Shown: positions 942 through 59,534, numbered from the stretch's first letter. The stretch is 64,000 bases of DNA from Prochloraceae cyanobacterium (GCA_030065265.1 JASJCW010000006.1:1820-65819); one strand, 5' to 3'. The notes: a model not told the origin generated them from the sequence alone. Program-made: numbers and translations.

Positions 942-967
942 AATCGGTGTCCCTGGGAACACCGATT
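942..967. repeat. Dispersed 26-bp palindrome, copy 1 of 8 (aatcggtgtccctgggaacaccgatt)
   Basis: Read directly. Consensus AATCGGTGTTCC-TA-GGAACACCGATT. One-base asymmetry in the arms. Separated from the stop of the minus-strand gene 2324..2677 only by the TnpB element. Confidence 0.85.
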
Positions 968-989
968 CAGAAAGGATAATTTAATGCCA

Positions 990-2325
990 TTTTAGCAAGA
1001 TTCGCGAGAATCCTACGATTGTAATCTTTGATTCAATCGTAGATGAATCGCCACCCAGATTTTTTTTTGTGCTATAATTATTTATAGTAAATTAAATTTG
1101 CTCTAAATGCTCAAAGTAGTCAAAGTAAGATTATATCCAAATAGCCAGCAGCAACAAGCCTTAAGCCAGTCTTTTGGTAATACTCGCTGGCTTTGGAATT
1201 ATTGTCTTAATTTGATGAATCAAACTTATATAGATACAGGAAAAGGATTATCGGGATACGAAGTTAAAAAACGAATACCACAACTGAAAAAAGAATACGA
1301 GTGGTTAAAGTTAACTTACTCTCAATGTTTGCAGCAAGTTTGTTTGAACCTTGGTACTGCTTTTAATAACTTCTTTGAACGAAGAGCTAAATATCCTCGT
1401 TTTAAATCAAAGCATGGTAAGCAATCTATACATTATCCTCAAAATGTTAAGCGGATAGAGGATTGTTTAAGGCTGCCAATGATAGGGGACGTAAAAGCAG
1501 TATTTCATCGAGAAATAAAAGGGAAAATAAAGACTGTAACTGTATCTAAGAATAAATCAGATCAATACTATGCTGCTATTTTATTTGAAGATGGAAAAGA
1601 TCAACCAGAAACAAATACTAATGGGAAAGCAATAGGTATAGACCTGGGAATTAATCACTTTGCTATAACTAGTGATGGTAGCAAGTTTGACAACCCTAGA
1701 TGGTTGACTAAACACGAGCATAATTTAAAAATTAAGCAACAAAGATTATCTAGAAGGGAGAAAGGATCTAGTAACAGAAATAAAGCTAGAAAAATTGTAT
1801 CTAAAGTACATAAAAAAATAGCTGATTGTCGCTCTGATTTTCATCACAAGCTATCACGCAGGATAGTAGACGAAAACCAAGTTATTGTAGTTGAAAATCT
1901 AGCAGTTTCAAATATGGTCAAGAACCGCAAACTATCCAAGGCTATAAGTCAAGTTGGCTGGGGACAATTCTGTACTATGCTTAAATATAAAGCAGAACAA
2001 GAGGGGAAAGTATACCAAGAAGTAGATAGGTTCTTTCCTAGCTCAAAAACTTGTAATGTTTGCCTTAACCAAGTGGATAGTTTGCCTCTTGAAATAAGAT
2101 TTTGGAACTGTTCTAACTGCGGTACTAAGCACATAGATCGTGATGTCAACGCCGCCAAAAACATCCGAGATGAAGGACTGCGAATTATTTCCTCTGGGAC
2201 GGGGGATAAAGCCTATCGCCAAACTGTAAGACGAAGTAATAGAGGACGCAAGAAATCTACTACATCGCTTGTTTCTGGGTAGGAAGCTGCTCTTGTAATC
2301 TCTGATTCAAGAGCGGTAGTTCACT
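990..2325 (+). mobile_element. IS200/IS605-superfamily TnpB-only element (no TnpA); boundaries approximate
   Basis: The tnpB ORF is flanked by two hairpins with nearly the same 12-nt loop. Left: ctacgattg-TAATCTTTGATT-caatcgtag (1013..1042). Right: gctcttg-TAATCTCTGATT-caagagc (2289..2314). This is typical of IS200/IS605 subterminal hairpins. Confidence 0.65.
1107..2282 (+). CDS. tnpB: TnpB (IS200/IS605 OrfB-type RNA-guided RuvC nuclease), apparently intact
   Basis: RuvC triad context is present: GIDLGINHFAITSDG (D), VVVENLAVSNM (E), DRDVNAAKNI (D). Zinc ribbon CNVC...CSNCG. Size of 391 aa is typical. Confidence 0.9.
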   Translation: MLKVVKVRLYPNSQQQQALSQSFGNTRWLWNYCLNLMNQTYIDTGKGLSGYEVKKRIPQLKKEYEWLKLTYSQCLQQVCLNLGTAFNNFFERRAKYPRFKSKHGKQSIHYPQNVKRIEDCLRLPMIGDVKAVFHREIKGKIKTVTVSKNKSDQYYAAILFEDGKDQPETNTNGKAIGIDLGINHFAITSDGSKFDNPRWLTKHEHNLKIKQQRLSRREKGSSNRNKARKIVSKVHKKIADCRSDFHHKLSRRIVDENQVIVVENLAVSNMVKNRKLSKAISQVGWGQFCTMLKYKAEQEGKVYQEVDRFFPSSKTCNVCLNQVDSLPLEIRFWNCSNCGTKHIDRDVNAAKNIRDEGLRIISSGTGDKAYRQTVRRSNRGRKKSTTSLVSG

Positions 2326-2677
2326 AAAGTGTCTTGCGTTCAGTATTGACGTATATTTGACGGTTTTGTAAGGCTTTTTCGATCGCTTTGATAATATCGT
2401 GAATTTTTTTGATTCTGCGATCGTCTTTTTCTTGTCCTTGCTCGACTTCATTGCGTAATAACTCTTCTCTGAGATCCATCATTTTAGGGATCTCCTTAAT
2501 TTCCATATTTGCTCTTGTCAGCTTGATGTTTATCTCTTGAAGCTTAAACTCTATACGCTCGCAAGCTTTGCTTATCTTCTTATCTACCTCTTCATCTTTT
2601 TTCGCAGTGTGCCAAACGAAACCCGCTATTATTCCGAAGTTAATTAAAAGCTGTGTTGAGTTGGTATCTATATTCAT
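2324..2677 (-). CDS. hypothetical protein with N-terminal hydrophobic segment and coiled-coil-like tail
   Basis: 117-aa ORF. LINFGIIAGFVW is hydrophobic and the rest is K/E-rich. Its stop codon sits about 10 nt from the TnpB right-end hairpin. Confidence 0.5.
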   Translation of the reverse strand: MNIDTNSTQLLINFGIIAGFVWHTAKKDEEVDKKISKACERIEFKLQEINIKLTRANMEIKEIPKMMDLREELLRNEVEQGQEKDDRRIKKIHDIIKAIEKALQNRQIYVNTERKTL

Positions 2678-2728
2678 GGTATAATATAAAGTTATTTTTT
2701 TTGGGCAACTATTAGATATTAAATTTTA

Positions 2729-2980
2729 TTACTTTGTTTCGTCTTCAGTGTTATCACCGAACCGATTCGAGTTATTTTTTTGTAATTCCCTATCCACAAT
2801 TTCCTCTACTTCTAGCGGGGTTATCTCCTTGTTGAAGTCTACTTCTAGACCGTTAGGAGTGTGAACGGAAAAAGTGGTGGAAGAAAAGACTAGGATCATC
2901 ACAGATACAGTAGTAAGACCGCCTTGTGCTGTATTCCTGAACAACTGGGCATAAGTTTTTAGCTTGCCATTTTTCATCAC
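2729..2980 (-). CDS. hypothetical small membrane protein
   Basis: 83-aa ORF with one hydrophobic stretch (GGLTTVSVMILVFSSTTF). Same strand as the neighbouring gene. Confidence 0.45.
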   Translation of the reverse strand: MMKNGKLKTYAQLFRNTAQGGLTTVSVMILVFSSTTFSVHTPNGLEVDFNKEITPLEVEEIVDRELQKNNSNRFGDNTEDETK

Positions 2981-3089
2981 ACATACCTCTAACTCGTCTC
3001 TCTTAATACCAATTTAGGTTTTTAGACTCCAAAAGCGATCGTAGTATTGTAGTAAAAATCAGACGAGATGTAATTCATCTGCAATACAA

Positions 3090-3398
3090 GTGAAGGGAAG
3101 ACAGCTTAGTATAAGGCTTTCAGACCAAGAGAATGAGTTTTTAGAACTAATGGTCGATCGGTGGGGTTGCTCGCGATCTGACGTTATTAGGATGCTGCTT
3201 AGAAACGAATATGAGTTAATAATTAGAGAAAATTCTAACGGTATAACTCTTTCAGAGAAAGAAGAGAGCTTTTTGGATTTTTTAGGTGATAGGTGGGGCT
3301 GTTCGAGATCTGACGCATTTAAAACTCTTATACGTAGCGAATACGAGTTAATCTTGAGAGAGCCGTCAAGCAACTTAAACGATAATGAAAATTCCTAA
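3090..3398 (+). CDS. tandem ribbon-helix-helix (CopG/Arc-type) DNA-binding protein, two RHH units in one chain
   Basis: Two internal repeats: LSIRLSDQENEFLELMVDRWGCSRSDVIRMLLRNEYELIIRE and ITLSEKEESFLDFLGDRWGCSRSDAFKTLIRSEYELILRE. GTG start. The repeat is also visible at the DNA level. Confidence 0.7.
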   Translation: MKGRQLSIRLSDQENEFLELMVDRWGCSRSDVIRMLLRNEYELIIRENSNGITLSEKEESFLDFLGDRWGCSRSDAFKTLIRSEYELILREPSSNLNDNENS

Positions 3399-3810
3399 AA
3401 AACTGCAGAAAAAGATAAAGGATATATATGCTGATGTCGTGGCAAAGTACGACATGGAGAGCGATCGGGTAATTGAGGATCCTAACGAGTTCGCTAATTT
3501 AGGTTTTGTTGACTGGGACATCGTTTTAACTGGTAGATTGCTAGACTCAAAAATAATAGAGACACAAGGGAGCTTTGCCACCAAATTTAGTTGGGATCCC
3601 GTCTCTCCCGAAAATAACTATCACTATGCCAGTGCTGTTTTTTGGGGGTTTAACGCCTGGGGTGGAACTAAGTTTATCCCTGGTCGCCCCTGGTCGGAGA
3701 GAGCTGCACACAATATAGATTGTGTCAGTTACTTTGCCAAAGAACTTAATAAAGCCGGCTATAATGCAAAGGTAATTCGAGATGACACCAGAACGATCGG
3801 CAAGCCATGA
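3385..3810 (+). CDS. hypothetical protein (141 aa)
   Basis: ORF overlaps the end of the RHH gene by 14 nt, so operon-like. No motif recognised. Confidence 0.55.
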   Translation: MKIPKKLQKKIKDIYADVVAKYDMESDRVIEDPNEFANLGFVDWDIVLTGRLLDSKIIETQGSFATKFSWDPVSPENNYHYASAVFWGFNAWGGTKFIPGRPWSERAAHNIDCVSYFAKELNKAGYNAKVIRDDTRTIGKP

Positions 3811-3950
3811 TAAGAGAAACTTTTGAAATCAGTCTCAGCAGCACTCTAGTAGATCGAGGATCGAAAAAACCTAAAAGTTTTACTTATCGCTATCGTCAAT
3901 ACTATTGCCCTTCTTGCCAAACATTGCCAGAACAAAAGCCAGAAGATTAA
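3807..3950 (+). CDS. small hypothetical protein (47 aa, contains CPSC)
   Basis: Not in the ORF track (<60 aa). Its ATG overlaps the upstream stop as ATGA (3807..3810). Translation: MIRETFEISLSSTLVDRGSKKPKSFTYRYRQYYCPSCQTLPEQKPED. Ends inside the terminator hairpin. Confidence 0.4.
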   Translation: MIRETFEISLSSTLVDRGSKKPKSFTYRYRQYYCPSCQTLPEQKPED

Positions 3951-3963
3951 TTCTTCTGGCTTT
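3938..3963 (+). terminator. intrinsic-terminator-like hairpin
   Basis: gccagaaga-ttaat-tcttctggc followed by TTT. Confidence 0.55.
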
Positions 3964-3985
3964 AAGGTTCCAGTTTTAACTTTTG

Positions 3986-4456
3986 TTAAATCCGTGTTCC
4001 TGGGAACACCGATTCATTTTCACTCAAAGAAACTTTTTTGACCATCCAAGCTGTTTCGCCTCCTATTTTACCTTTCTTGAGAAATACCCAATTGCCTCTA
4101 ACAAAAAGATTGACATTCTTTTTAGTCTTAGGTCGAACTCCGATAATTGCCTTTACTTCTGAGGTAGTGAGCAGCCATCATAATTCGCAGGAGGGTACTG
4201 CAACTATAAAACGAAAGCGATTTAAAACAACGCAGTTGTTGCGCTTAAAGTTTTTAGTTGTAGGGGAATCCTGCGCCAACCCTTTATGCAGCACGCGAAT
4301 GTATGGTAAAATACATAAACTCAACTTAAGACACGAAGACTTAAAAAAGAACAGGTGAAATACCTGATACACAACCGCGTATGCAGTCTGCCAATCATTG
4401 GTGAACAGACAATCGTCAGGGGTATAAATTAGACGCTTTTTTAGGAAGTGAATCAT
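3986..4456 (-). pseudogene. possible disrupted gene: ORF 4178..4456 continues in frame after a TGA (4178..4180) into a protein-like C-terminal remnant
   Basis: Minus-strand frame after the TGA reads WLLTTSEVKAIIGVRPKTKKNVNLFVRGNWVFLKKGKIGGETAWMVKKVSLSENESVFPGTRI*, with no usable start codon. The upstream part overlaps non-coding element A. Confidence 0.25.
3989..4014. repeat. Dispersed 26-bp palindrome, copy 2 of 8 (aatccgtgttcctgggaacaccgatt)
   Basis: Read directly. Overlaps the last codons (..NESVFPGTRI*) of the minus-strand coding remnant 3986..4177. Confidence 0.85.
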
Positions 4457-4634
4457 TTTTCAAGTTGAAAAAAGATAAAAGTAGACTCAATTACTTCGGT
4501 ATGAGAGGGTAGGGTCGCCTTGACAGTGCCTGTGTGCTGCCGTAACTGGCAGGTTCGTAGCTTGTGTTACCGCCGAGATTCTGTTTTTAAGAATCCGTTT
4601 CTATAACGGAGTTTAGGAACGGAGTATGTCAATG
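4300..4634 (+). ncRNA. Element A: unclassified structured-RNA-like element, paralogue of element B
   Basis: Near-identical blocks shared with 10399..10745 in reverse complement. UUCG hairpin (tac-ttcg-gta, 4492..4501). Helix 4537..4552 (ctgcc/ggcag) covaries with B (acacc/ggtgt). Closing helix ttgaca (4520..4525) / tgtcaa (4627..4632). TAAAAT -10-like box at 4307..4312. Confidence 0.4.
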
Positions 4635-4684
4635 ATTCTCCTTAGCTTGCTCTAACCACTGATGCTTTTCTATGGGGGAACTCA

Positions 4685-5291: not shown

Positions 5292-5522
5292 ATGAAGATA
5301 AAGAGAGTTCAAGAAGTTGAAGACACGAGAATAGCGAGAAAAATTCTAGTTGCCAGAAAATTAAGCGATAAGAGTTTGGAGCAGATTTGTAAAGAAGTGG
5401 GGGTATCTCGAACTTACTGGTATTCCATTGAAAAAGACGACTTAACAGGTAGCTTGTCTTATGCCAACTTGAAAAAGATTGAAAGTGTCTTGGATATAGA
5501 GTTAGAAATTTACTTTGATTAA
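5292..5522 (+). CDS. XRE-family helix-turn-helix transcriptional regulator
   Basis: SLEQICKEVGVSRTYWYSIEKDD is a classic Cro/CI-type HTH. 76 aa. Divergent from 4685..5119 across a 172-bp region that contains a hairpin (5155..5193) and a tgtgcat direct repeat. Confidence 0.8.
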   Translation: MKIKRVQEVEDTRIARKILVARKLSDKSLEQICKEVGVSRTYWYSIEKDDLTGSLSYANLKKIESVLDIELEIYFD

Positions 5523-5530
5523 TTAAACCA

Positions 5531-5648
5531 GTTAGAATCGAACCTAAAAAGGTTAGAATCGAACCTAATTGAGTTTGAATCGAACCAAAATGGTTAGAAT
5601 CAAAGTTAGAATCGAATATTGATTAAAGATTCAGAGTTAGAAATAAAA
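5531..5648 (+). repeat. array of about 6 direct repeats, GTTAGAATCGAACC-type (iteron or centromere-like)
   Basis: Copies start at 5531, 5552, 5573 (gtttgaatcgaacc), 5593, 5605 and 5636 (degenerate), immediately after the XRE gene stop. Confidence 0.75.
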
Positions 5649-6196: not shown

Positions 6197-6307
6197 TATT
6201 AAAAACTCGATCGTACAATCAATTAATTATACAATTGAGTTTTCCACTATTAGAGTTTTTTCTCCAATAAAGCAAAACCCCCGATCCCAGAAGGATCGGG
6301 GGTTTTA

Positions 6308-9239: not shown

Positions 9240-9281
9240 TTGATGTTATATTAGAGCTATTTGTTACTTGTGGTAAGTTTA

Positions 9282-9842
9282 ATGAGTCCATATACTAAAG
9301 AAGAGATAGAGAAATTATTTATAGAATCGCCACAAGATCTCACCATATCAGAGATAGCGCGACAGACAGGACGATCTAAAAGTGTCGTGCATTATTGGAT
9401 AAATAAAAATCATTGGAATAAGAAAAGGAAAGAATTTTGGGATGGTACGCAAGCTATGGAGGAGCCTTCTATAGCTCCTGCTGTCAAGAGAGCCAACCAA
9501 AGTTTAAATAAGATTCAAAAAATATTAAATTTAGATGCTGCAGGTTTAGCTTTAGATCATCTCGTAACTTACCAGAAGTTTAGAAAGTTTTCAGAGTTAA
9601 TCTTGAGTCAGATAATCAAGAAAGTCAACGAATCGCCAGATCCGATCGCTGAGATAAAAAATATAAATATAAAAGACATCAATTTACTCAGTCAGATAAG
9701 CGATCGCTCTATTAAAGGCGAGAGTGCATCTATAGCACTTCACTTGCAGATTAATCCGAGTATGGCGATCGCCAGTCTGGAAAATATGGGTTATGTAGTA
9801 ATCGATCCTAACGATTCTATTGAAACTATCCCTACTGAATGA
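9282..9842 (+). CDS. HTH protein, possible small terminase subunit
   Basis: N-terminal HTH LTISEIARQTGRSKSVVHYWINKN. Lies about 1.6 kb upstream of the large terminase, with element B and a minus-strand gene in between. The ATG at 9282 is preferred over the TTG at 9261. Function is inferred from context only. Confidence 0.4.
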   Translation: MSPYTKEEIEKLFIESPQDLTISEIARQTGRSKSVVHYWINKNHWNKKRKEFWDGTQAMEEPSIAPAVKRANQSLNKIQKILNLDAAGLALDHLVTYQKFRKFSELILSQIIKKVNESPDPIAEIKNINIKDINLLSQISDRSIKGESASIALHLQINPSMAIASLENMGYVVIDPNDSIETIPTE

Positions 9843-9867
9843 ATCGGTGTTCCTAGGAACACCGATT
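9842..9867. repeat. Dispersed 26-bp palindrome, copy 3 of 8 (perfect)
   Basis: aatcggtgttcctaggaacaccgatt. Its first base is the last base of the TGA stop of 9282..9842. Confidence 0.9.
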
Positions 9868-10773: not shown

Positions 10774-11433
10774 TTATTGATTTTTTACGCTCGTGGAGTC
10801 CCCTGCGCGAAATACAGATGGCATTATATCTGAGGTTATTGTTTTAGATTCAGAATTGTTGACAATTTTTATCCCTTGAATCAGATCTCGAATAAAGACC
10901 AGATCGGTGGAAATGTAATTTTCAGGTAGCGACTGTTCGATCTCTTCTATCTGCCACTGAGAGCGATCGCAATTTAACAGCAGGTTGCCTGCTATTTTTA
11001 CAGCTAGAGTAAAGTAAGGCTTATAACCGACTGTCCCATTTAATGGCAATTGCTTTGCTTCTATTTTGAGAAAAGAAATTATAGCCTTTTGTAAGTGGGA
11101 GTAAGAACTAATTTTACTGTCATTGGCTAAAAAATACAAAAAATCTTCTAACTCATTTGAAGTCTCTAAATGTTCTGGGATGCTAACTTGTAGATTAGAT
11201 TTGCTTTGAAAGTCCTGTACTCTTTTGATAGTTTCTATGAAATTTTGTATTTCCTCGCCACTTTTTTTAAGACTTTTAGATTCGAGGCAATCTTGAAAGC
11301 TACGCAAACAACAGATTAAAAAGTCAGATTTGTAGCTGACAATCTTGCCTAATTCAGAATCCGCTAATATTCTTTTAAACTCAGTAGGGAACGATTTTAT
11401 TAATCGTTGTATCTTTTTCTCGTCTAGTTTCAT
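10774..11433 (-). CDS. hypothetical protein (219 aa)
   Basis: ORF from the track. Its ATG overlaps the terminase ATG on the other strand (CATGATG, 11431..11437). Confidence 0.55.
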   Translation of the reverse strand: MKLDEKKIQRLIKSFPTEFKRILADSELGKIVSYKSDFLICCLRSFQDCLESKSLKKSGEEIQNFIETIKRVQDFQSKSNLQVSIPEHLETSNELEDFLYFLANDSKISSYSHLQKAIISFLKIEAKQLPLNGTVGYKPYFTLAVKIAGNLLLNCDRSQWQIEEIEQSLPENYISTDLVFIRDLIQGIKIVNNSESKTITSDIMPSVFRAGDSTSVKNQ

Positions 11434-12877
11434 GATGCTAAATAGAATTATTACCCCTAAATATAAAGGTAAAATAAAAGACTGGGGTAAACTGCATTCA
11501 TTTACTCAAACTGTGGATGCTGCGAGTTATCCAGTGTTCGAGCCAAATCCTGGCGGTCAACAGGAAATCTTTGATCGTCTCTCTCTCAGTAGCATTTATG
11601 GCGGTGCTTATCGCTGGTATTGGATCCTCGGTGGCATAAACTCAGGTAAGTCTACTTGTGCTGCTGCTTTTATCTGCAATCAAGCCAGATTAGATCCCAG
11701 TATTAGAATACTCATAACTGCTAACAGCTATCCTCAGCTAATGATGAGTACTTTAGTTGCTCTAGCTGAATTCTGCGAGAAATTTGGCTACAAGCTAGAA
11801 CCATCTCTACCTTCGCCAGAAGACACAGCAGCAAAAATAGCAGCATTAAAGCATTGTAAAATAGAAGGTGCTTATTGTTTCGTCAGATCTGCTGATAGTT
11901 TCACTGGTGCAACTGAAAAAGCCAAACAAGGAGGCCGCGGCATACAAGTAAGAATTGTTTGGTGGGACGAGGGAAGTTACAACGATCGTATGTGCTTTCA
12001 AACTATAGACGGACGTTTAGGACGTGGCGCGGGTAGTGTAAAAGGGATAGGAATAATCAGCAGCAGTATCAATAGGATTAACCCATTTAACTGGACATAC
12101 GATCTATTCGCTAGCGATCGTCGAGATGAATTACAAAAGCAGATATATGGTAGTACGATTATCCCCACCACGGAAAACATACACGCCGATCCCGATTTCG
12201 TACGATCTCAAGAAGCTTCACTTACTCCAGAATTAAGAGCATTAGAACTCGAAGGTAGATTCGTTAGCATTACCACTGGTCGAGTGTTCAATTACTTCAA
12301 ACGCGATCGCCACTTAAAATCGCTATCAGTCAATCTCAATTTATACGTGTGTGTCTCTTTTGATTTCAACCGATCGCCAGCTACCTGCTTGATAGCACAG
12401 AGCAGTGGACGATCGGTTGAAGTGGTAAGAGAGTTTTATTTATTGGAATCGGACACCATGCAACTAGCTGAAGCTGTGGCACAGTATCTAAGGAAATTGG
12501 GAGTTTCTGTATTAGTATATGGCGACAGTACGGGCATTCAAAGAACAGCTAATAGTAAATTTACAAACTGGCAAATAGTCTGGGATACCTTTAGCAGACA
12601 TGGGGTTTATGGCGTTAGAAAATATCCCGATCGCAATGCCAGCGTTTTAGATAGCGTCCACAGCGTCAATAATGCTTTCAATCGAGATGAGATCTTTATC
12701 GATCCTAGCTGTAAGGAACTCATAGCAGATCTGGAATTTTTGACGTGGGATAAAAATGACAAAATAGACAAGCGCGACATCAAGCGATCGCACTTAGGTG
12801 ATTGTTTGAGATATTTGATAGATGGCATACTTCCATATAGAAGAGAAACCATCAAGAGATCTGGTCGTTGGGGCTGA
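11432..12877 (+). CDS. terL: terminase large subunit
   Basis: Walker A ILGGINSGKSTCAA. Walker B RIVWWDEGS. C-terminal nuclease-like acidic motifs (VSFDFN, VYGDSTG, GDCLRY). ATG at 11432 chosen within the track ORF 11345..12877. Confidence 0.9.
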   Translation: MMLNRIITPKYKGKIKDWGKLHSFTQTVDAASYPVFEPNPGGQQEIFDRLSLSSIYGGAYRWYWILGGINSGKSTCAAAFICNQARLDPSIRILITANSYPQLMMSTLVALAEFCEKFGYKLEPSLPSPEDTAAKIAALKHCKIEGAYCFVRSADSFTGATEKAKQGGRGIQVRIVWWDEGSYNDRMCFQTIDGRLGRGAGSVKGIGIISSSINRINPFNWTYDLFASDRRDELQKQIYGSTIIPTTENIHADPDFVRSQEASLTPELRALELEGRFVSITTGRVFNYFKRDRHLKSLSVNLNLYVCVSFDFNRSPATCLIAQSSGRSVEVVREFYLLESDTMQLAEAVAQYLRKLGVSVLVYGDSTGIQRTANSKFTNWQIVWDTFSRHGVYGVRKYPDRNASVLDSVHSVNNAFNRDEIFIDPSCKELIADLEFLTWDKNDKIDKRDIKRSHLGDCLRYLIDGILPYRRETIKRSGRWG

Positions 12878-14453: not shown

Positions 14454-15974
14454 GTGGTTAATCTCTCCGAGTTAAACTCTAACTCACTTTTCCTCGCTCC
14501 CACAGGAGATGTAAGCAAAAAGGATCCCGACTACCTAAAAAATTTACCTACCTTAATCTACTTAGAAGATATGTGGACGGGTTTAGAAAATTGGTACAAA
14601 GACGGAATTGTAATTGATGTCCTAAAAGCTGAAAGATATCTACCTAAATTCAAGTATGAAGACGACGGTATCTACAGAAATAGATTGGCTCTGACTAGTT
14701 GGGACGATAAGTTTAAACGTACTATAGAGCAAGATTTAGCTGGCTTGCTCTCAAAAATGGTTGTGTCTAACTTGCCACCTACTTTAGAAGAGAATATAAA
14801 CAATGTAGATTTAAGCGGGAACTCATTAGACGTTGTTCTCAAGACATTAGATGTGTTGTCACTGAGAGACGGATCTGCATTTTGCTTGATCGACTTTCCC
14901 AACGAATCGCCACCACAGAACGAACTTGAAAGGAGGCGATTGCGATCGAGACAGCGACCTTATTTAGTCCCCATACCGAGAAAGCAGATAATAAACTGGA
15001 AGTATTCTAACGCTAGTGGCAATCTAACCATAGAGCAAGTCGTCATCAAGAGGGAGATTAAGAAGTATTTAGATCGTTTCGATCGCCAGTACGTCACTCA
15101 ATATCTAGTCTTAGAACCTGGTACGTTTGAAATTTACGAGAAAACTGATGCTGTCTCAACAGAAGAGTTAATCTTAGTAAACCGCGGTCAAACGAGCTTA
15201 GACTTCGTTCCCATTGTCGGATATTCGTTGCACTCGTCAGATCCTTTCCTGGCTGATTTCCCTTTAAAGTGCATAGCCGATCTGAATCTAGATTTATATC
15301 GCTACGATGCCGATCTAAAGTGGTCTCAACACCTTGCTAATTGCCCTACATTAGTTTATGAAACGATGTCAAAAGTCAAAGACGGAACTCTCCAAGGTAC
15401 GCAGCAAACTAAACAAGATGAAGAGTTAAAGATCGGTGCAGGGCAAATAATTTTTGCTGAATCTAAAGTTTACTGGTTGGAGCTAGAAGGGAAAACTCTA
15501 GAGTCAACTATGAAACTAATGCAGTTGACTAACGAGAATATCGATCGCAAGTCTATTGGATATCTCACAGGTATTCTCGGCAAGCAAAAAACAGCCACGG
15601 AAATCAGTATAAATGCCTCGCAAGCTGAAGCCAACCTAGAAGCTATATCGAAACAAAAGCAATCGGCGATCGAGCAAATATTGAGAGTTTGGCAATCTTA
15701 CACCAACGAAAATGTAGAGCCAGAATTCAGCTTCGATACTAGCTTCTTAACTAAATCACTCCAAAATACAACATTGAGCGATTATCGGGAATCTTGGCTA
15801 GTTGGGTGGCTTTCACATTCACTTTCTCTGAAATTAGCCAGTGATGCTGGTGCATTCCCTAAGCCGCTTAGCGATCGCGAACTTGAAGATGAATTAAGCA
15901 ATAATAGGGTAGAATCTCAATTAACTCCACCGCCAATATTACCGAGCGAGCCAGACGAGAGAGGCAATGTATGA
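14454..15974 (+). CDS. putative portal protein
   Basis: 506-aa ORF and the first structural-size gene after terL (ignoring the inserted cassette). Acidic C-terminus. GTG start. Called from position and size only. Confidence 0.5.
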   Translation: MVNLSELNSNSLFLAPTGDVSKKDPDYLKNLPTLIYLEDMWTGLENWYKDGIVIDVLKAERYLPKFKYEDDGIYRNRLALTSWDDKFKRTIEQDLAGLLSKMVVSNLPPTLEENINNVDLSGNSLDVVLKTLDVLSLRDGSAFCLIDFPNESPPQNELERRRLRSRQRPYLVPIPRKQIINWKYSNASGNLTIEQVVIKREIKKYLDRFDRQYVTQYLVLEPGTFEIYEKTDAVSTEELILVNRGQTSLDFVPIVGYSLHSSDPFLADFPLKCIADLNLDLYRYDADLKWSQHLANCPTLVYETMSKVKDGTLQGTQQTKQDEELKIGAGQIIFAESKVYWLELEGKTLESTMKLMQLTNENIDRKSIGYLTGILGKQKTATEISINASQAEANLEAISKQKQSAIEQILRVWQSYTNENVEPEFSFDTSFLTKSLQNTTLSDYRESWLVGWLSHSLSLKLASDAGAFPKPLSDRELEDELSNNRVESQLTPPPILPSEPDERGNV

Positions 15975-21734: not shown

Positions 21735-21980
21735 TTGTTAGCTTGTATGAGTAAAATAATAATAATAAATCGTTCTAAAAGACTCTCATTAGAAGGTAGG
21801 ATATTGGAATGTTTATTCAAAAATCCTTCTGGACTGACAGCTAAGCAGATTGCGAATTTTCTCAACCGTCCTGTATCTTCAATAAATATATGTTTAAAAA
21901 ACTTAATATCTTACAAGCAAGTAAGCAGAAAAAGGAATGATTTAAATGAATCAGTGTTCCTAGGGACACCGATTAAATAG
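21735..21980 (+). CDS. winged-helix (MarR/ArsR-like) small DNA-binding protein
   Basis: LTAKQIANFLNRPVSSINICLKNLISYKQV. The last codons (NESVFLGTPIK*) are encoded by palindrome copy 4. Confidence 0.5.
   Translation: MLACMSKIIIINRSKRLSLEGRILECLFKNPSGLTAKQIANFLNRPVSSINICLKNLISYKQVSRKRNDLNESVFLGTPIK
21949..21974. repeat. Dispersed 26-bp palindrome, copy 4 of 8 (aatcagtgttcctagggacaccgatt)
   Basis: Lies where the convergent genes 21735..21980 (+) and 21973..22434 (-) end. Confidence 0.85.
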
Positions 21981-22434
21981 CTCTGGCATAGAGATCTAAA
22001 AAATGTTCTGGACAAGACACTGTCTTATTAGAAACGCGATCGTAAGGTATCTTGTCAATTACGAGGTAATCGGCAATTTTGACATTGTAGTTTTTAGTGA
22101 TAAAAGCTGAGGTAATGCCTAACCTCCTATAAGCAATCTCGAACAATAAATAGATAGTACAAATCTGAACTGATTTGAGATCTAGATCGCCAGAACCTAA
22201 AAGAATAGAACAGCAGACGAAAAGACCGTCAGAATTGTAGAATTTTTTTTTTTCTATTTTAAAATGCATTGCAAAAAGCCTAGATTCATAAAAATCGTCA
22301 TTTGAATCAATGGCATATCCTCGATCTAGAGTTAACCCAACCCAATTACAGAGATGATTTTTTAAATCTTCAATAGTGCGATCGTAGCGAAAAAATAATG
22401 ACAGTGGCGGTTCGATAAAATTGTGTCTAGTCAT
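21973..22434 (-). CDS. hypothetical protein (153 aa)
   Basis: ORF from the track. 4-nt overlap with the upstream 62-aa ORF. Confidence 0.55.
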   Translation of the reverse strand: MTRHNFIEPPLSLFFRYDRTIEDLKNHLCNWVGLTLDRGYAIDSNDDFYESRLFAMHFKIEKKKFYNSDGLFVCCSILLGSGDLDLKSVQICTIYLLFEIAYRRLGITSAFITKNYNVKIADYLVIDKIPYDRVSNKTVSCPEHFLDLYARAI

Positions 22435-33174: not shown

Positions 33175-33199
33175 ATCGGTGTTCCGAGGAACACCGATT
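33174..33199. repeat. Dispersed 26-bp palindrome, copy 5 of 8 (aatcggtgttccgaggaacaccgatt)
   Basis: Starts on the last base of the fibre gene's TGA. The convergent gene 33202..33531 ends 3 nt after it. Confidence 0.9.
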
Positions 33200-33201: not shown

Positions 33202-33531
33202 TTAGATAAGCAATCTGAGGATTATTTTTGCGCGGTTGAAATCTAATTTATATTCCCCTGGTTGCAAGTTATCAGGGGATCTGCTAGGTTGATAAACTTT
33301 TCCAGCAATTTTAATATTCAATACACTACTGGCATCGCTAGGTAAGTCTAACTCTATCTCGTCACTGGTAATAGTTCCCAGAAGTGTTGAAGTTTTCAGT
33401 ATTGGCAGTGCTGAATTAAACAGATTGAACTTACCTAAACTCGCTCCGTCTCTCACGTTTTCTGATACTGCTATAACTGCTGACGATAAATGAGAATATT
33501 TCCCTAACTCGTCAGAAATAAATCTTAACAT
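33202..33531 (-). CDS. hypothetical protein (109 aa; trimmed)
   Basis: Track ORF 33202..33660 would overlap the tail-tube start. The internal ATG at 33531 (MLRFISDELGK...) removes the overlap. Confidence 0.4.
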   Translation of the reverse strand: MLRFISDELGKYSHLSSAVIAVSENVRDGASLGKFNLFNSALPILKTSTLLGTITSDEIELDLPSDASSVLNIKIAGKVYQPSRSPDNLQPGEYKLDFNRAKIILRLLI

Positions 33532-33598
33532 TATATTTGTTCGGTCAATCTTGTATATGCCATAAATTAGATTGTAGACGAGGTGCAACTTAAATACT

Positions 33599-34306
33599 AT
33601 GGGCAGATTTATTAATGGAACTACTGTCGATATTTCTATAGCTCCTTTGGTGCTTTGCAAGCGATACGTTCCGACAGATCAGACAATCGCTGTAGCTGCT
33701 GCTACTGCTAACGATCCGACAATTACAGCTACCGCGCCACTAACAGCAGATTTGGCTAAATTTTCCACTTTAACTGTGGACATATCAGGAGTTACGAGAT
33801 ATATCTACGTTGATGCTGACGTGTTGGCAGGGGGTACGAACATCCCAGTCAAAGGAATGAATTTTGACTTACCTGCAGGGAATGTCGAGTTTATAGCCAA
33901 ACAACCGATCGCCAATACCACAGAAGCTAGTTTCGAGCTAACAGCGAATGCTCAAGAATTTTACTTTTTGAACAATCAAGCCAGTAGCTTTAAAGACGAA
34001 ACAACTGTTACTGGGGAATGGTCTGTACCCATTACTACCAACTTGCAGTTAGAGACTCCAGCACAGAATATATTAGGCAATGCTTCAGTAGACTTAATCT
34101 TGAACGATCGCGAGTGTTATATGTGGTTAGAATATATCACTTCAGCTTGCGTTAGTAGTTTGGGATTCACTGGCAAGACTACTAGAGAAGGGGTAATTTG
34201 TGTAATGGAGTATTCGGAATCAGCACCAGGGGATAATATTGTAACCATCTCAGCTACACTATCGGGACGCGGCGCTGTAACCACTAGCAATTTCTACGAC
34301 AATTAA
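33599..34306 (+). CDS. putative major tail (tube) protein
   Basis: 235 aa, immediately upstream of the G/GT chaperone pair and the tape measure (conserved siphovirus gene order). Beta-rich and T/A-rich. Confidence 0.6.
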   Translation: MGRFINGTTVDISIAPLVLCKRYVPTDQTIAVAAATANDPTITATAPLTADLAKFSTLTVDISGVTRYIYVDADVLAGGTNIPVKGMNFDLPAGNVEFIAKQPIANTTEASFELTANAQEFYFLNNQASSFKDETTVTGEWSVPITTNLQLETPAQNILGNASVDLILNDRECYMWLEYITSACVSSLGFTGKTTREGVICVMEYSESAPGDNIVTISATLSGRGAVTTSNFYDN

Positions 34307-45273: not shown

Positions 45274-45531
45274 ATGTCTGAATTATATCTCGCTTTAGAG
45301 CAGCAATCCCGCGCGGCTGCAGATCGCGAATTGACTGAAGAGTATCTAAGCTCAGTTGAATATCAAGCTCGACAGGACGCGCAATTAGGGGAACCCAACA
45401 AAGAGTTATTCTTAGATCCTGAATATTGGCAATATTACTGTGAAGGTCTCAAGCACAAGTATTGCAGGGAATTCGAGAAATATCCTCAAATTAAAGCTTA
45501 CACTGTTGAAGACGAAGACTTGCTCTTTTAA
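45274..45531 (+). CDS. hypothetical protein (85 aa)
   Basis: ORF from the track. Confidence 0.5.
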   Translation: MSELYLALEQQSRAAADRELTEEYLSSVEYQARQDAQLGEPNKELFLDPEYWQYYCEGLKHKYCREFEKYPQIKAYTVEDEDLLF

Positions 45532-45534: not shown

Positions 45535-45560
45535 AATCGGTGTTCCTAGGAACACCGTTT
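45535..45560. repeat. Dispersed 26-bp palindrome, copy 6 of 8 (aatcggtgttcctaggaacaccgttt)
   Basis: 3 nt after the stop of 45274..45531. One arm mismatch at the outer end. Confidence 0.85.
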
Positions 45561-47870: not shown

Positions 47871-47891
47871 TTGTAATAGCATGATTTTATT

Positions 47892-48197: not shown

Positions 48198-49376
48198 ATG
48201 GTAGTCAACGTAATACAGGACATTGTACCCAGTATTAGAGCTACTGGCGCTGCTGTACTGAGAGCTTATAATCTCTTCCCTAATTTGATAAATAGTAGTT
48301 ATTCTGTGGATGCCAGACAGCCAGGATCTGCGGTTGAAGTTTCTATACCTCCGACAATAACGACTAGAAAAGTAGTTCCAGGCAATATCCACCCAGCAAG
48401 CACGCCTTTTACTGTTGGCTCGGTTCCGATAGTATTAGACTTTTTTGAAGAATCTGAATTCGGGTTGCCTGAAGACGAACTCGGAAAAATACAGAATAGA
48501 GAGGTATCCTCGTTTACTCAATCAGCAGCAGTATCGATCGTTCAGGCTGCAAATACTTATACCATCAATAAGATGTATAAGCGATCGTACAATGTTATTG
48601 GGGATGTAGCTACAACGCCTTTTGAAAACGGTACTACTTCTTACGCGAATAGAGCCAGAAGAGTATTAGATGAGAATCTAGCTCCGAATAACGATCGCTA
48701 TCTGGTGCTAGATCTATTTGCTGACGAGAAAGCGTCGAGTTTAGATTTATTCCTGAGAGTCAATGAATCTGGGACTGACCTAACTTTAAGAACTGGTGAA
48801 ATAGGAACTAAGCTTGGATTTAGTTGGTGGCGGACTCAATTAATGCCCCGTCACGAATCAGCTCCAGGACTTGACGGTGCTTATCAAATTGATTCTACTA
48901 CCCACGCGATTGACGACACTCAAGTGACTATTTCTCAAGTGGGAGGCGCGCCTAACGTTGATTTTGTTGAAGGTGACATATTTACTGTCGCTGGGGATGC
49001 CCAAACATACGTGGTAACTAAAACTGAAGTAGGTGTAAATAGCGGCGATCTTACTTTGCAATACTTGCCAAAAGCTAAAACTGCTTTCGCTGACGACGCG
49101 ATTATAAGTGTAATTCCTACTCACACTGTTAGTTTAGCTTTCCACAGAAACAGCACTGGTTTTGCTAATAGATTGTTATTTGTTGATGAATTTCAACATC
49201 AAATGCCTGGAAAGATCATCGAGCCAGTTAGAGATCCTGAAAGTGGATTGACCATGACTTACCTTGCTAGCCCGCAGTACTACCAAACAAGCCACGCTTA
49301 CAGTATCCTTTGCGGAGCAGCTGTGATCCGCCCAGAGCATATAGTTAGAATAATAGGCAATCCCAACCCTGCTTAG
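48198..49376 (+). CDS. major capsid protein (P22 coat-like, HK97 fold with insertion domain)
   Basis: 392 aa, after the scaffold gene. The N-terminal pattern (..LRAYNLFPNLINSSYSVDARQPGSAVEVSIPP..) resembles P22-coat-family proteins as I recall them. No search was run. Confidence 0.65.
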   Translation: MVVNVIQDIVPSIRATGAAVLRAYNLFPNLINSSYSVDARQPGSAVEVSIPPTITTRKVVPGNIHPASTPFTVGSVPIVLDFFEESEFGLPEDELGKIQNREVSSFTQSAAVSIVQAANTYTINKMYKRSYNVIGDVATTPFENGTTSYANRARRVLDENLAPNNDRYLVLDLFADEKASSLDLFLRVNESGTDLTLRTGEIGTKLGFSWWRTQLMPRHESAPGLDGAYQIDSTTHAIDDTQVTISQVGGAPNVDFVEGDIFTVAGDAQTYVVTKTEVGVNSGDLTLQYLPKAKTAFADDAIISVIPTHTVSLAFHRNSTGFANRLLFVDEFQHQMPGKIIEPVRDPESGLTMTYLASPQYYQTSHAYSILCGAAVIRPEHIVRIIGNPNPA

Positions 49377-52085: not shown

Positions 52086-52136
52086 TACTTTATCTCGTCT
52101 AGTGTAATAACTGTGGGGAATATCCCCACAGTTATA

Positions 52137-54080: not shown

Positions 54081-54081
54081 G

Positions 54082-54897
54082 ATGAAAATAGAAAAGAGGA
54101 TTTTAAACTCAATGGAAAATAAATTCAAACTAGCAGTATTGGCAAATATGGCAACTGACAGGGAGCAGCCAGAAGCTTATATATCGCTCACTTTAGATCC
54201 TAGGGGTAGCGTATTGACGATATGTTTCAACAAGATTATCTCGGAGGAGAAGATCGCGTCAATGCTAGATCTCAAGTTCGAGTATTCCGAAGCTGCTTTA
54301 CCTTCTAAGAGAGTGATTAACGAAAATAATCTAGTTTGTGTAGCTGACGGGTTTTTACCTCCGAAAGCTGGATGGATATTTGTATCGAAGGATTTTAGCG
54401 AGATTGAAAGCAGGTATAACTTTTTGCGACATACTTTTGAGGTTGGGTTTGCCAACGGATTCACAGATTTAGATTCAGCTTTGGAACACTTCAAAAATAA
54501 GCAATTTAGATTCAGCCTTAAACTTGCTGACGATATTTTTGAATGGGGCAAGCTAGCTTTTAAGAATGCTGAGATCCTGAAAAAATCTAAGTGTCGTTTG
54601 AGGATATACCGCAATAAGAGACAAGTTACAGTTATCGTATCTGAAGTTCCAGACAATGAGGGGCGATCGATAACTAATGGCGTTGAGTCGATAATTACCC
54701 ACGGCTGCAAAAAATACGATATAGACTTCGATCGTGTCATCTGGCTCGAACACTATCCAGAAGAGATTACCAGTAGCAACGAAAAAATAGATGAATGTTT
54801 TTCACGAGTACACTTGCAGAGCAATAAAAATCCTTACTGGGAAAACTACTCCAAAGAACAAGCAGAGAGATTAATCGGAATGTCTCTAAATGACTAA
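54082..54897 (+). CDS. hypothetical protein (271 aa)
   Basis: ORF from the track. The antisense ORFs inside it are judged spurious. Confidence 0.6.
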   Translation: MKIEKRILNSMENKFKLAVLANMATDREQPEAYISLTLDPRGSVLTICFNKIISEEKIASMLDLKFEYSEAALPSKRVINENNLVCVADGFLPPKAGWIFVSKDFSEIESRYNFLRHTFEVGFANGFTDLDSALEHFKNKQFRFSLKLADDIFEWGKLAFKNAEILKKSKCRLRIYRNKRQVTVIVSEVPDNEGRSITNGVESIITHGCKKYDIDFDRVIWLEHYPEEITSSNEKIDECFSRVHLQSNKNPYWENYSKEQAERLIGMSLND

Positions 54898-54903: not shown

Positions 54904-54929
54904 AATCGGTGTTCCTAGGAACACCGATT
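54904..54929. repeat. Dispersed 26-bp palindrome, copy 7 of 8 (perfect)
   Basis: aatcggtgttcctaggaacaccgatt, 6 nt after the stop of 54082..54897. Confidence 0.9.
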
Positions 54930-54967: not shown

Positions 54968-56158
54968 ATGAAAACCTCAAAAGGATCGTTTTACACGATC
55001 TCTCAACTCCCTGGTGCTGTATCAGGTGGAGTAGAAATAGGCGATCGAGTACAAGCTATCTCTGATGCAATCGAGGTAGGGGATACCAGTAAAGTTAAAC
55101 TAAAATTTCTCGATCGCTCCGGCGAGATAACTTTAGACGATTATTGCCTGCAGCCGCTAACCAGAAAAGAAGCCAACGAGATTGACGCGTTAGAGCAAGT
55201 AGCAGGGAATATCCCTATAATCTACCGAGATCCTCGCAAGCTAAAAACTCATCCTCTAAACGACAGGATATATGGAGCAGACGAGCCGATCGCCGATCTC
55301 TTGGAGAAAGTGAAAGAGACGGGAGAGATCCACCCAATAATCGTAAATCAAAACAATGAGATCGTAAGTGGCAATAGGAGGCAAAAAGTAGCGATCGAGC
55401 TTAGCTGGAAATTAGTTCCAGTAATAGTACAAAAGTTCGCTGACGATTTTGAAGAAAAAGAAGCTTTGCTATCTTACAATGCATCGAGAGATAAAACTGT
55501 TGAGCAAATAACTAACGAGACAAACGAATGGATAGAGATAATTAAGCACAAGAGAGAGAAGGAGCCGCAAAAAAAAGGACAAAGAAGAGAGAGAGTTAGA
55601 GACTTAGCTTGCCAAAAAAGCAATCAGAAGCCTAGCAGCTACCACAGAAGTAACTCAGTTTTGAAACGAATAGAGGAGCTTAAAAAAGAAGGGGAAATAG
55701 AACAAGCTGAGAAGTGGAAAACAAAGCTAAATAATAATCCTACAGCTGCTTACAAAGAGTACCAGGAAATCAAAAAGCAAGCTACTCAATTCAGCCATCC
55801 TATAGGTGAAATATGCCAAATATCAGCAGGTTCTAACTCGGAGCTAAAAGCATATCAAGGGTTGTGGGGTGTAGTAGTAAGTAAAAACGATATCCTAGGC
55901 GATTTTATGATCTACGATACCGTACTTAAAAACGTCAATTCTTTTTACTTAAAAAGCTTGAATTTTAACGAGCTAGATCGCAAAAAAGCTAAGAAAATCA
56001 TGGAGCGTTTATATGCGATCGGAAGCCAAGATAAAGATGCCATAACTACAGATATGCTTCAAGGTATATCTAGGCGACCTAATCCTGAATTGACAGTTAA
56101 AGAACACAAACTGTTAGTAACTTTAGAAACTACTCTTAATGAATTCAAATCAGCTTAA
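54968..56158 (+). CDS. ParB-like nuclease (ParB/Srx) domain protein
   Basis: LKTHPLNDRIYG...IHPIIVNQNNEIVSGNRRQKVAIEL is the ParB N-terminal domain pattern. Confidence 0.7.
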   Translation: MKTSKGSFYTISQLPGAVSGGVEIGDRVQAISDAIEVGDTSKVKLKFLDRSGEITLDDYCLQPLTRKEANEIDALEQVAGNIPIIYRDPRKLKTHPLNDRIYGADEPIADLLEKVKETGEIHPIIVNQNNEIVSGNRRQKVAIELSWKLVPVIVQKFADDFEEKEALLSYNASRDKTVEQITNETNEWIEIIKHKREKEPQKKGQRRERVRDLACQKSNQKPSSYHRSNSVLKRIEELKKEGEIEQAEKWKTKLNNNPTAAYKEYQEIKKQATQFSHPIGEICQISAGSNSELKAYQGLWGVVVSKNDILGDFMIYDTVLKNVNSFYLKSLNFNELDRKKAKKIMERLYAIGSQDKDAITTDMLQGISRRPNPELTVKEHKLLVTLETTLNEFKSA

Positions 56159-58686: not shown

Positions 58687-58774
58687 AATAATAATGCGAT
58701 TGTGTTTTGCATTCGTAAGATAGGTGATGCGACTTCGATTTAATCGAAGTCGTATAACAATATTATACTTCTAT

Positions 58775-59308
58775 TCAATTTAAATCGTATTCATTGAAAG
58801 GAATATAAGGGGTAAAAGATTGAAAAAGTTTATCTTGCTTTGAAGGTAAATATAAATCGAATAATCCGCAAGATGTATGAATTTTGCAGCCTTTTAAATC
58901 GCATTTAGAATTAGCAGCTTGCTTGAAGCTTAACCCTAAAATATATTGACTGTCAGAGTTATACTTTTCTAAAAAATTTTGACAGCTAAAAAGTTCAATC
59001 ATATTGGGGATAGCTGCTGTTGTTAAATAAGACATTTTCTTATTAAAAATTTCCCCAGTCTCAAATTTTTCATATTTTTTAGATGGGTCTAAAAGATTAC
59101 AGCCAAATTGAGTAATATCAAAAGTCAGAATTCCTTTGCCATATTCGGAATAACAACATCTTGCAGCTTTAGAAACAATCTCGCTGATAGGATTTCTAAA
59201 AGTCAATCCTTTAAAAAATACCCTGAAAATATAATCTATATCTTCATGGCTTTTATAAGCCGGTTGCACAGTTCCAAACGGTTCGAGCATTTTTGCACCT
59301 TTATTCAA
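58775..59308 (-). CDS. hypothetical protein (177 aa), Cys-rich
   Basis: ORF from the track. Preceded by the perfect palindrome at 59311..59332. Confidence 0.55.
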   Translation of the reverse strand: MNKGAKMLEPFGTVQPAYKSHEDIDYIFRVFFKGLTFRNPISEIVSKAARCCYSEYGKGILTFDITQFGCNLLDPSKKYEKFETGEIFNKKMSYLTTAAIPNMIELFSCQNFLEKYNSDSQYILGLSFKQAANSKCDLKGCKIHTSCGLFDLYLPSKQDKLFQSFTPYIPFNEYDLN

Positions 59309-59310
59309 TT

Positions 59311-59332
59311 AAATAGATTATATAATCTATTT
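59311..59332. promoter_or_regulatory. 22-bp perfect palindrome aaatagattatataatctattt
   Basis: Read directly. Starts 3 nt upstream of the 59308 start codon and contains TATAAT/ATTATA at its centre. Confidence 0.5.
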
Positions 59333-59508
59333 AGTCTGGATAATATTTGGTATATTTGACGAGGTTTTGAAGTGTTTCTCCTCGTCAGTTTCGTTATAAT
59401 AAAAAGCGATCGTATTTTGTTGTTAATTGCGATCGCTTCAAAAGGAGTAATCAAGTTGTTAAATTCATCATAGAATAAAAAAACAATTGATTATATTAAG
59501 AAATGTAC

Positions 59509-59534
59509 AATCGGTGTTCCCAGGAACTCCGATT
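59509..59534. repeat. Dispersed 26-bp palindrome, copy 8 of 8 (aatcggtgttcccaggaactccgatt)
   Basis: 6 nt after the stop of the minus-strand methyltransferase gene. One arm mismatch. Confidence 0.85.

Follow-up and report, generated by a model that had tools for sequence, protein, structure and literature searches.

A 26-bp palindrome repeated eight times, mostly at gene ends, in a siphovirus-like cyanophage contig

We studied a 64,000-nt stretch of DNA from a Prochloraceae cyanobacterium assembly (GCA_030065265.1 JASJCW010000006.1:1820-65819; the whole stretch is called the window below), in which a first-pass annotation had reported a 26-bp palindrome occurring eight times beside stop codons. 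The window is a siphovirus-like cyanophage contig that was binned with a Prochloraceae metagenome-assembled genome (MAG), and besides the terminase, portal, coat and tape-measure genes listed in Table 1 it encodes ParB_N, C5-methylase and SF1-helicase genes. Searching with AATCGGTGTTCCTAGGAACACCGATT and allowing up to three mismatches, we recovered exactly eight matches to AATCGGTGTTCC-TA-GGAACACCGATT, each with zero to two mismatches and at the positions first reported (Table 1), and no match in 100 shuffles of the window. The element is composed of 12-bp inverted half-sites around a 2-bp core (12-2-12), its dyad is perfect to the centre, and the central dinucleotide varies as originally described. 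This repetition is real and non-random.

Gene ends were assigned with a self-trained codon score and checked against independent gene calls on identical or related contigs. For six of the eight copies, the distance to the stop codon of a well-supported gene is between -2 and +6 nt; as only 5.9% of the permissible non-coding positions are that near to a stop, random placement would put at least six of eight there with a probability of ~1e-6. The first-pass annotation had placed the copies, with copy 1 as the one exception, within 7 nt of a gene 3' end, which is correct for these six and incorrect for copy 2, and for copy 1 depends on the ends of an insertion sequence (IS). Seven copies are extragenic or touch a stop codon only, and the remaining one falls in the last codons of a small gene. 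Four copies occupy convergent junctions, and of the four in tandem arrangement three have a spacer of 187-272 nt behind them (187 nt from copy 6 to the next + strand gene, and about 200 nt from copy 8 to the next - strand gene). Copies 3 and 5 begin on the last base of an in-frame TGA, as had been noted, and copies 4 and 5 were rightly placed between convergent genes: the - strand genes 21973..22434 and 33202..33660 end there, the first with a TAA that copy 4 overlaps by 2 nt and the second with a stop 2 nt beyond copy 5.

Copy 1 is parted from the - strand gene 2324..2677 by an IS200/IS605-family element that carries TnpB only, and this element splits the palindrome from the gene end that the palindrome probably once capped. 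By aligning other cyanobacterial copies, we placed the IS ends at about 991/996 and 2324/2325, and the restored stop of 2324..2677 then lies 0 to ~26 nt from copy 1, varying with the ends chosen. In one model, with the TTTAG target motif kept and the element ending ...GTTCACT, the TGA overlaps copy 1 as it does copies 3 and 5. The earlier suggestion that copy 1 adjoins this stop once the TnpB element is removed stands under that model, and otherwise the distance is up to ~26 nt.

A canonical terminator lies between copy 2 and the nearest stop (3950), copy 2 starting 25 nt after it, and the ~670 nt after copy 2 hold no convincing gene. The - strand frame that spells NESVFPGTRI at copy 2 was found in no open reading frame (ORF) of at least 20 aa, and the proposal that copies 2 and 4 encode a common C-terminal NESVF peptide had to be abandoned; what the two copies share is the same DNA in the same frame, nothing more. 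The interval 3964-4684, ~720 nt that begins after the canonical terminator and includes copy 2, contains no ORF of convincing coding score and no Rfam match, and may represent either a gene in decay or a locus for a non-coding RNA.

Folded as RNA, the copies form stems of 11-15 bp with a 4-nt loop, with free energies (dG) of -9.3 to -21.3 kcal/mol on the sense strand and z-scores of -1.7 to -7.6, and as in terminators a stable GC-containing hairpin stands 0-6 nt after stops. The U-tract of a terminator (about at least five U in the 8 nt directly after the stem) was not found, with U-rich tails present at copy 1 on its sense strand (UUUAUUUGU) and at copy 2 on the + strand (CAUUUUC) only; the first-pass statement that no copy is followed by a U-tract applies to most copies and fails for these two. 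A lenient terminator scan matched copy 2 (+ strand, partial stem) and copy 7 (antisense only), and otherwise none in the sense orientation. No Rfam family matched at the gathering threshold, no tRNAs are present, and no recurrent motif of a shared promoter emerged from the promoter-like scan matches or the downstream flanks, which were neither aligned nor motif-searched.

In its sense orientation, the repeated unit reaches a T-G at positions -2/-1, on the gene-proximal side. TG is present on six of the 16 flanks in the window (P ~1e-4), and taking together the copies of the window and of a mosaic relative described below (L097), T is found at -2 in 9/10, G at -1 in 7/10 and TG in 7/10. In copies 1, 2 and 5 the G at -1 can engage the first base of the 3' flank in a G.U pair, on the sense strand only.

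We additionally identified other hairpins in the position occupied by the palindrome. The window contains 36 palindromes with arms of at least 10 nt, compared with a mean of 12.1 in dinucleotide shuffles, and 23 of these are intergenic. Some ten unique hairpins with a dG of -10 or lower lie 0-22 nt past other stop codons; stem-plus-T-run terminators and long near-perfect palindromes without T-runs that follow stops are given in Table 1. Three related phages (L082, L083 and L085) show the same habit of gene-end hairpins. Because unique hairpins occupy the same niche, also in related phages, the eight-copy family belongs to a general class of gene-end hairpins, of which it is one member that has been reused.

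The palindrome is private to one cyanophage lineage. The 26-mer, with any central dinucleotide (NN), had no exact match in 185,579 species-representative genomes, IMG/VR or JGI metagenomes, its 20-nt core had none in IMG/VR, and no match with up to six mismatches was found in 0.6 Mb of cyanobacterial loci, the true host genome not being searched with mismatches. This lack of exact matches in genome, viral and metagenome collections rules out a generic host repeat, and by it the comparison with host chromosomes that the first-pass annotation had proposed, for equal frequency of the motif, was carried out in part. Among 50,697 phage records the window has no close relative: its first 12 kb gave no megablast match, and its terminase large subunit (TerL) gave only matches below 26% identity.

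Relatives were found by terminase search and fall into three tiers, namely the same lineage (L088 and L097), phages with a TerL of ~72% identity (L082 and L083, with L090 similarly distant) and distant phages (L085 and L087). Two further contigs, L001 and L084, match the window at 100% identity. In L088, whose TerL is 95% identical, the orthologous sites hold copies 3 and 4 with no sequence change, the two variant bases of copy 4 included. The mosaic relative L097 has structural genes of ~89% DNA identity and a ParB-like protein of 65% identity, and copies 7 and 8 are kept in it. The palindrome is thereby retained at all four orthologous sites readable in L088 and L097. The 26-bp motif is absent from the examined parts of L082 and L083 (TerL ~72% identical) and of L090, which is similarly distant (66-78% DNA identity).

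In copy 7 of L097, 22/22 arm positions are identical to the window within a surrounding 1.9 kb of 73% identity (0.73^22 ~0.001), and the centre is changed from CTAG to TGTG. In copy 8 the centre is changed from CCAG to TTGA, and pair 12:15 from C:G to T:A. As the arms are unchanged and both centres altered, the predicted stem is frozen and the four predicted loop bases are free. The palindrome is under selection, and its arms appear to be under purifying selection.

L083 has a palindrome of its own (ACCTTAnnGATCAATTGATCnnTAAGGT), present in two copies, one after the terminase stop and one at the convergent junction orthologous to that of copy 4; the blocks of this family (ACCTTA..GATCAATTGATC..TAAGGT) are separated by non-complementary 2-nt spacers. 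At the same junction, L082 carries a third, unique hairpin. This convergent junction, between the wHTH gene and a 153-aa gene, holds a hairpin in three phages with three unrelated sequences, and the small wHTH ORF ends inside or just past the hairpin in all three (window, L083 and L082). Thus, the position of the hairpin is conserved, and its sequence is replaced from one lineage to the next and homogenised inside each. We set aside the AGAACAATTGTTCT palindromes of the distant L085 and L087 (Table 1) as the same phenomenon, because they look like GAAC-N4-GTTC LexA-type boxes upstream of genes; their presence suggests SOS control in these phages.

We next compared the palindrome with the joints between gene modules. 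When the window is compared with L097, the left edge of copy 7 is exactly where similarity starts. On the left side the genes are unrelated, a 109-aa gene in L097 whose TAA overlaps the palindrome and a 271-aa gene in the window that ends 6 nt before it, and on the right side both the spacer and the ParB-like gene show homology. The similarity around copy 8 is a 254-bp island with replaced modules on either side, and one breakpoint lies 41 nt from the copy. The similarity blocks of L088 continue straight through copies 3 and 4, and the other breakpoints fall off the palindrome copies, making copy 7 one clean case and not a rule. The module-boundary role suggested by the first-pass annotation has in its favour this one breakpoint, exactly at a copy, and against it the remaining ones. 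In L097, a 184-aa ORF with a Phage_integrase domain (12180-12734, - strand) takes the place of the SF1 helicase module of the window, and no integrase was found in the 64-kb window.

Exchange at the copies might also be site-specific. The hix and gix sites are 26 bp long, with 12-bp inverted half-sites around a 2-bp core, and the exact 12-2-12 layout and variable central dinucleotide of the palindrome would fit a crossover site of this kind for a serine recombinase or invertase. We regard this as highly improbable: no recombinase, invertase, resolvase or integrase domain is encoded in the 64 kb, L088 and L097, where readable, have the genes between copies in collinear order, and inversions between copies would create divergent junctions, at which none of the eight is found.

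Table 1. Positions of the palindrome copies and of other features named in the text (window coordinates, unless a relative is named).
Feature	Position	Strand	Sequence, context or evidence	dG (kcal/mol)
Palindrome copy 1	942..967	- (sense)	AATCGGTGTCCCTGGGAACACCGATT; downstream of - strand gene 2324..2677, with the TnpB insertion sequence between	-18.6 (- strand)
Palindrome copy 2	3989..4014	none	AATCCGTGTTCCTGGGAACACCGATT; 38 nt past stop of 3807..3950 (+); weakest hairpin	-9.3
Palindrome copy 3	9842..9867	+	perfect; first base is the A of TGA of HTH/TerS-like gene 9261..9842	-18.6
Palindrome copy 4	21949..21974	none	AATCAGTGTTCCTAGGGACACCGATT; convergent junction, last codons of wHTH gene 21735..21980 (+)	
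Palindrome copy 5	33174..33199	+	centre GA; first base is the A of TGA of 30694..33174 (+)	-21.3 (+), -17.6 (-)
Palindrome copy 6	45535..45560	+	AATCGGTGTTCCTAGGAACACCGTTT; 3 nt past TAA of 45274..45531 (+)	-14.6
Palindrome copy 7	54904..54929	+	perfect; 6 nt past stop of 54082..54897 (+); 38 nt before ParB_N gene 54968..56158	
Palindrome copy 8	59509..59534	-	AATCGGTGTTCCCAGGAACTCCGATT; 6 nt past stop of C5 DNA methylase gene 59541..60605 (-)	
IS200/IS605-family element, TnpB only	991..2325	+	Pfam OrfB_IS605, TNB and HTH domains; outside the repeat family	
Terminase large subunit	11345..12877			
Portal	14454..15974			
Tape-measure protein, 3123 aa	35578-44949	+	PHROG tape-measure matches	
P22-type coat protein (major capsid gene)	48198..49376			
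Stem-plus-T-run terminators after stops	6274-6306, 3935-3963, 10023-10050		terminator scan	
Long near-perfect palindromes without T-runs, after stops	17919-17948, 52107-52135, 58727-58755			
AGAACAATTGTTCT-type palindromes	L085 3811-3832, 12676-12694; L087 3054-3073, 6137-6174		upstream of genes; resemble LexA/Cheo-type SOS boxes	

The reading that we tentatively prefer is that of a lineage-specific gene-end hairpin, similar to a repetitive extragenic palindrome (REP), which in a Rho-less host would work at the RNA level, as a terminator or as protection of the 3' end, and would have been spread by recombination. It is favoured because of the terminator-like position, the polarity, the conservation of stem against loop, and the junction occupied by three unrelated hairpin sequences. 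Each transcribed copy would form a hairpin 0-6 nt past the stop, its stem having 11 bp (AAUCGGUGUUC / GAACACCGAUU) and its free loop 4 nt, and this hairpin would end or attenuate transcription, guard the mRNA 3' end against 3'-5' exonucleases, or both. At convergent junctions it would work in both directions, in a host phylum without Rho; Cyanobacteria lack this factor, and canonical terminators explain only a minority of their transcript ends (PMC12642595). The near-identity of the copies would have arisen by recombination-driven spread and homogenisation, not by independent evolution, and their common 26-bp identity would make them natural joints for the exchange of gene modules. Of the three roles that had initially been put forward (terminator or 3'-end stabiliser, protein-binding site and module boundary), the first is the best supported by position, through the convergent junctions, the spacers, the niche shared with other hairpins and the dG values, although no tested point indicates that a factor is required.

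Several observations weigh against such a hairpin. As most copies are without a U-tract, efficient intrinsic termination is not predicted for them, and as copy 7 lies only 38 nt before the next gene, full termination is less likely there. Substitutions in the arms are uncompensated (G.G, U.U, A.A and A.C), and the covariation test was not significant (58/500 shuffles reach the observed score). A structural role alone needs no eight identical stems, and a dyad extending to the centre with frozen arms suits a dimeric DNA-binding protein equally well.

We also considered a palindrome that is read as duplex DNA, a rather unlikely reading in our view, in which a dimeric phage protein would bind all eight sites and either block or regulate transcription at unit boundaries, in a stoperator-like or KorB-like manner, or use them as dispersed centromere or condensation sites. 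Candidates are the products of the ParB-family gene 54968..56158, the wHTH gene 21735..21980, the RHH gene 3090..3398 and the HTH_3 gene 5292..5522, the HTH, RHH and wHTH genes being candidates for repressor-type proteins. The perfect 12-2-12 dyad and the lack of any isolated 12-nt arm (half-site) in the window agree with such binding, as does the conservation of the arm sequence, beyond its pairing, among copies and in relatives at 73-89% identity, and the L083 palindrome family similarly retains its sequence blocks despite the non-complementary spacers between them. The ParB_N gene begins 38 nt after the perfect copy 7 and its N-domain matches Spo0J and Noc, the wHTH gene overlaps a palindrome in three phages, and the core TGTTCC..GGAACA bears what we take to be a loose likeness to ParB/Noc sites. 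A precedent is found in the 34-copy, 17-bp dyad repeat of the Cluster O mycobacteriophages (PMC4351075).

However, operator binding leaves the tight stop-codon placement and the gene-proximal TG polarity unexplained, and unique hairpins fill the same niche elsewhere in the window. No ParA/Walker-type partner was found in the window, no HTH was detected after the ParB_N domain, and canonical parS sites (TGTTNCACGTGAAACA type, 16 bp) are not enriched (1 match at 3 mismatches, against 1.9 expected). The ParB-like protein is 65% identical in L097 and the arms are unchanged, therefore there is no protein-site co-variation, which is weak evidence as the DNA-reading residues are not known; a single-sequence structure model of this protein was unusable (mean pLDDT 39.6), with two homologues only for alignment. 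The symmetric change from C:G to T:A at pair 12:15 in copy 8 of L097 suits base-pairing better than protein recognition. Frozen arms, and ParB-family and wHTH genes at copies, are what we found for the genome-wide binding site of the first-pass annotation; positive evidence for it was not found.

Under a further reading, which we consider quite unlikely, the palindrome would be the cis element of a phage-encoded, sequence-specific termination system in a Rho-less host, with a ParB-family or wHTH protein reading the arms and the sites doubling as module joints. If this is true, the arms would be read either on DNA, as a roadblock, or on the nascent hairpin, and the phage would be able to switch termination at eight unit boundaries in the course of infection.

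The lineage-specific spread of near-identical copies also bears on a selfish origin, in which a miniature palindromic element (REP/RAYT-like, or a minimal MITE, a miniature inverted-repeat transposable element) would have copied itself to permissive sites at gene ends while contributing little function itself; its mobilisation might have depended on a Y1/HUH or other transposase of the host. The flanks of the eight copies are unrelated to each other save for the T-G feature, and the near-identity of the copies in such flanks, their strand polarity with a conserved 5' TG, and their restriction to one narrow lineage, with absence from relatives at 72% TerL identity, are as expected of such an element. 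Stop codons are built into it, a TGA at the 5' edge and, when the centre is CTAG, one in a second frame, and a gene should therefore tolerate its insertion within the last codons; IS200/IS605-family TnpB elements are moreover found at a distance of 23-32 nt from two palindrome sites, copy 1 of the window and the copy-6 position of L097. Nevertheless we hold this origin to be doubtful. No target-site duplication or consistent flank surrounds the copies, which consist of two abutting arms only, and the window encodes no TnpA, RAYT or other transposase. The 185,579 reference genomes and the viral and metagenome collections contain no exact copies, L088 and L097 showed no presence/absence polymorphism at any of the four orthologous sites that were read, and the arms are apparently under purifying selection.

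TnpB-only IS200/IS605-type elements were identified at different places in the window (991-2325), L097 (1-1165) and L088 (6911-8290), two of the three close to a palindrome site (copy 1 of the window and the copy-6 position of L097). The L097 element, ~26-32 nt downstream of the copy-6 position, differs from that of the window, to which its DNA sequence is unrelated, and adjoins a second palindrome (45593-45621). These TnpB elements may prefer insertion near hairpins. The left end of the window element (1040-1052) has GATGAATCG, which is conserved in other copies of the element and equals the (A)TGAATCG head of six palindrome copies; this likeness is probably due to chance, because the similarity goes no further.

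A second, MITE-like element is present in two copies (12889-12958 and 14266-14385) with terminal inverted repeats of ~29 nt (TATAGCAATCCGATTTAATTCGTAAAT...), and the pair flanks a 1.3-kb - strand cassette between the terminase and portal genes. The terminase-portal junction consists of 52 nt with its own palindrome in L083 and contains a TnpB element in L088, and looks like an insertion hot spot.

Proteins identical to those of the window are recorded on a Prochloraceae cyanobacterium MAG contig, and the TnpB of the window is 91% identical to TnpB in another Prochloraceae MAG. The HIP1 motif (GCGATCGC) occurs 34 times in the window, compared with ~0.3 estimated by chance from base composition; L082 and L085 are also rich in HIP1, and L083 has zero HIP1 and 50 CGATCG. 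The abundance of HIP1 is a host-like oligonucleotide signature in these phages. Judging from the MAG proteins, the TnpB match and the HIP1 excess, the host is therefore almost certainly a cyanobacterium. The 3123-aa tape measure implies a tail that is unusually long for a siphovirus-like cyanophage. Its identification also disposed of the idea that the hairpins are promoters for an N4-like virion RNA polymerase, as this ORF encodes the tape-measure protein and no polymerase. A link between the palindrome and the methylase via CCTAGG was likewise discarded (10 sites, against ~8 expected).

The C5 cytosine methylase (59541-60605, - strand) appears to be circularly permuted, with a C-terminal-type region at residues ~94-170 and the catalytic motifs at 176-353, and a separate ParB_N-like gene (60547..61158) lies just upstream of it. 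Other repeats were identified in the window. Three tandem 20-nt repeats (62505-62568; TG.TCGCGACATTGGTGTCGTGAG) are followed by three 38-nt repeats with GGGGAAATTTCCCC (62571-62755), all within the 601-aa - strand gene 61334..63139; these look iteron-like, and a replication origin may be located here. The Cro/CI-type HTH_3 gene 5292..5522 is followed directly by three tandem 21-nt repeats (TAAACCAGTTAGAATCGAACC; 5524-5590), which resemble an operator array. Finally, tandem repeats of ~77-87 nt (GTGGGGGCGCAATGCCGACCA...; 47890-48081), which include a 39-aa ORF, are found just upstream of the major capsid gene, with a related, rearranged version in L097.

The ends of transcripts in cyanobacteria are largely unexplained, and a phage that caps eight units with one 26-nt element offers a ready test case; the palindrome could possibly also serve as a portable terminator or insulator part for cyanobacterial engineering. 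It provides a clear example of a phage-private REP-like repeat in which the stem is conserved and the loop is free across strains, and the breakpoint exactly at copy 7 is relevant to the way in which phage mosaics are put together. Should the palindrome be read by a protein, this would constitute a new regulatory circuit.

Compared with known repeated elements, the palindrome belongs to none of the families considered, each of which has a defining feature that we tested and did not find here. The dispersed sites of ParB-family proteins (KorB operators of RK2, Noc-binding sites and the centromere repeats of N15) are 13-16 bp long. They resemble the palindrome in being palindromes scattered over a replicon, with a ParB-family gene beside copy 7 and a TTCC..GGAA core, but the element here has 26 bp, no ParA and no detected HTH accompany it, and its association with stop codons is left unexplained. 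The PeSL cassettes of T4-type phages are repeated stem-loop sequences at gene boundaries that provide homologous joints for module shuffling. Copy 7, with a breakpoint exactly at its edge, recalls these joints, but PeSLs are longer and include a promoter, whereas no conserved promoter accompanies the palindrome copies. MITEs are defined by terminal inverted repeats, a target-site duplication and an internal segment, whereas the palindrome is two abutting arms.

Among phage repeats, the 17-bp dyad of Cluster O mycobacteriophages (TGTTCGGNNNCCGAACA, 34 copies in Corndog) is likewise phage-specific and genome-wide, with invariant arms and a variable centre (PMC4351075). In contrast to the palindrome, it lies mostly between ORFs, near 5' ends or within genes without association to stop codons, has a 7-3-7 layout and is far more numerous (PMC4351075). 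The stoperators of Cluster A mycobacteriophages also occur in many copies genome-wide and are thought to end transcription within or between units (PMC9283540); they are asymmetric sites of 13-14 bp, oriented with transcription and bound by a monomeric immunity repressor, whereas the element here is a 26-bp palindrome, asymmetric only in its TG flank.

Intrinsic terminators, bidirectional ones included, are stable stem-loops directly after stops, and the palindrome similarly has AAU/AUU flanking the stem and in some copies a U-rich tail, but one exact stem at eight sites is atypical of them and most copies here lack a proper U-tract. REP elements are short repeated hairpin palindromes in unrelated intergenic contexts, mostly 3' of genes and at convergent junctions, and are lineage-specific, as is the palindrome. 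They differ in being present in hundreds of copies in a host chromosome, imperfect and GC-rich, with a GTAG head and a RAYT, whereas here eight copies of a perfect 26-bp dyad with a T-G head lie in a phage, no Y1_Tnp domain is encoded in the window, and the high host copy number is lacking (no exact match in the 185,579 genomes). The mRNA upstream of REPs is stabilised by them, and where a REP lies within 15 nt of a stop codon, the translation of the upstream gene is affected (PMC12306157). By analogy, it is REP elements and bidirectional terminators that the palindrome would most resemble in the way it works.

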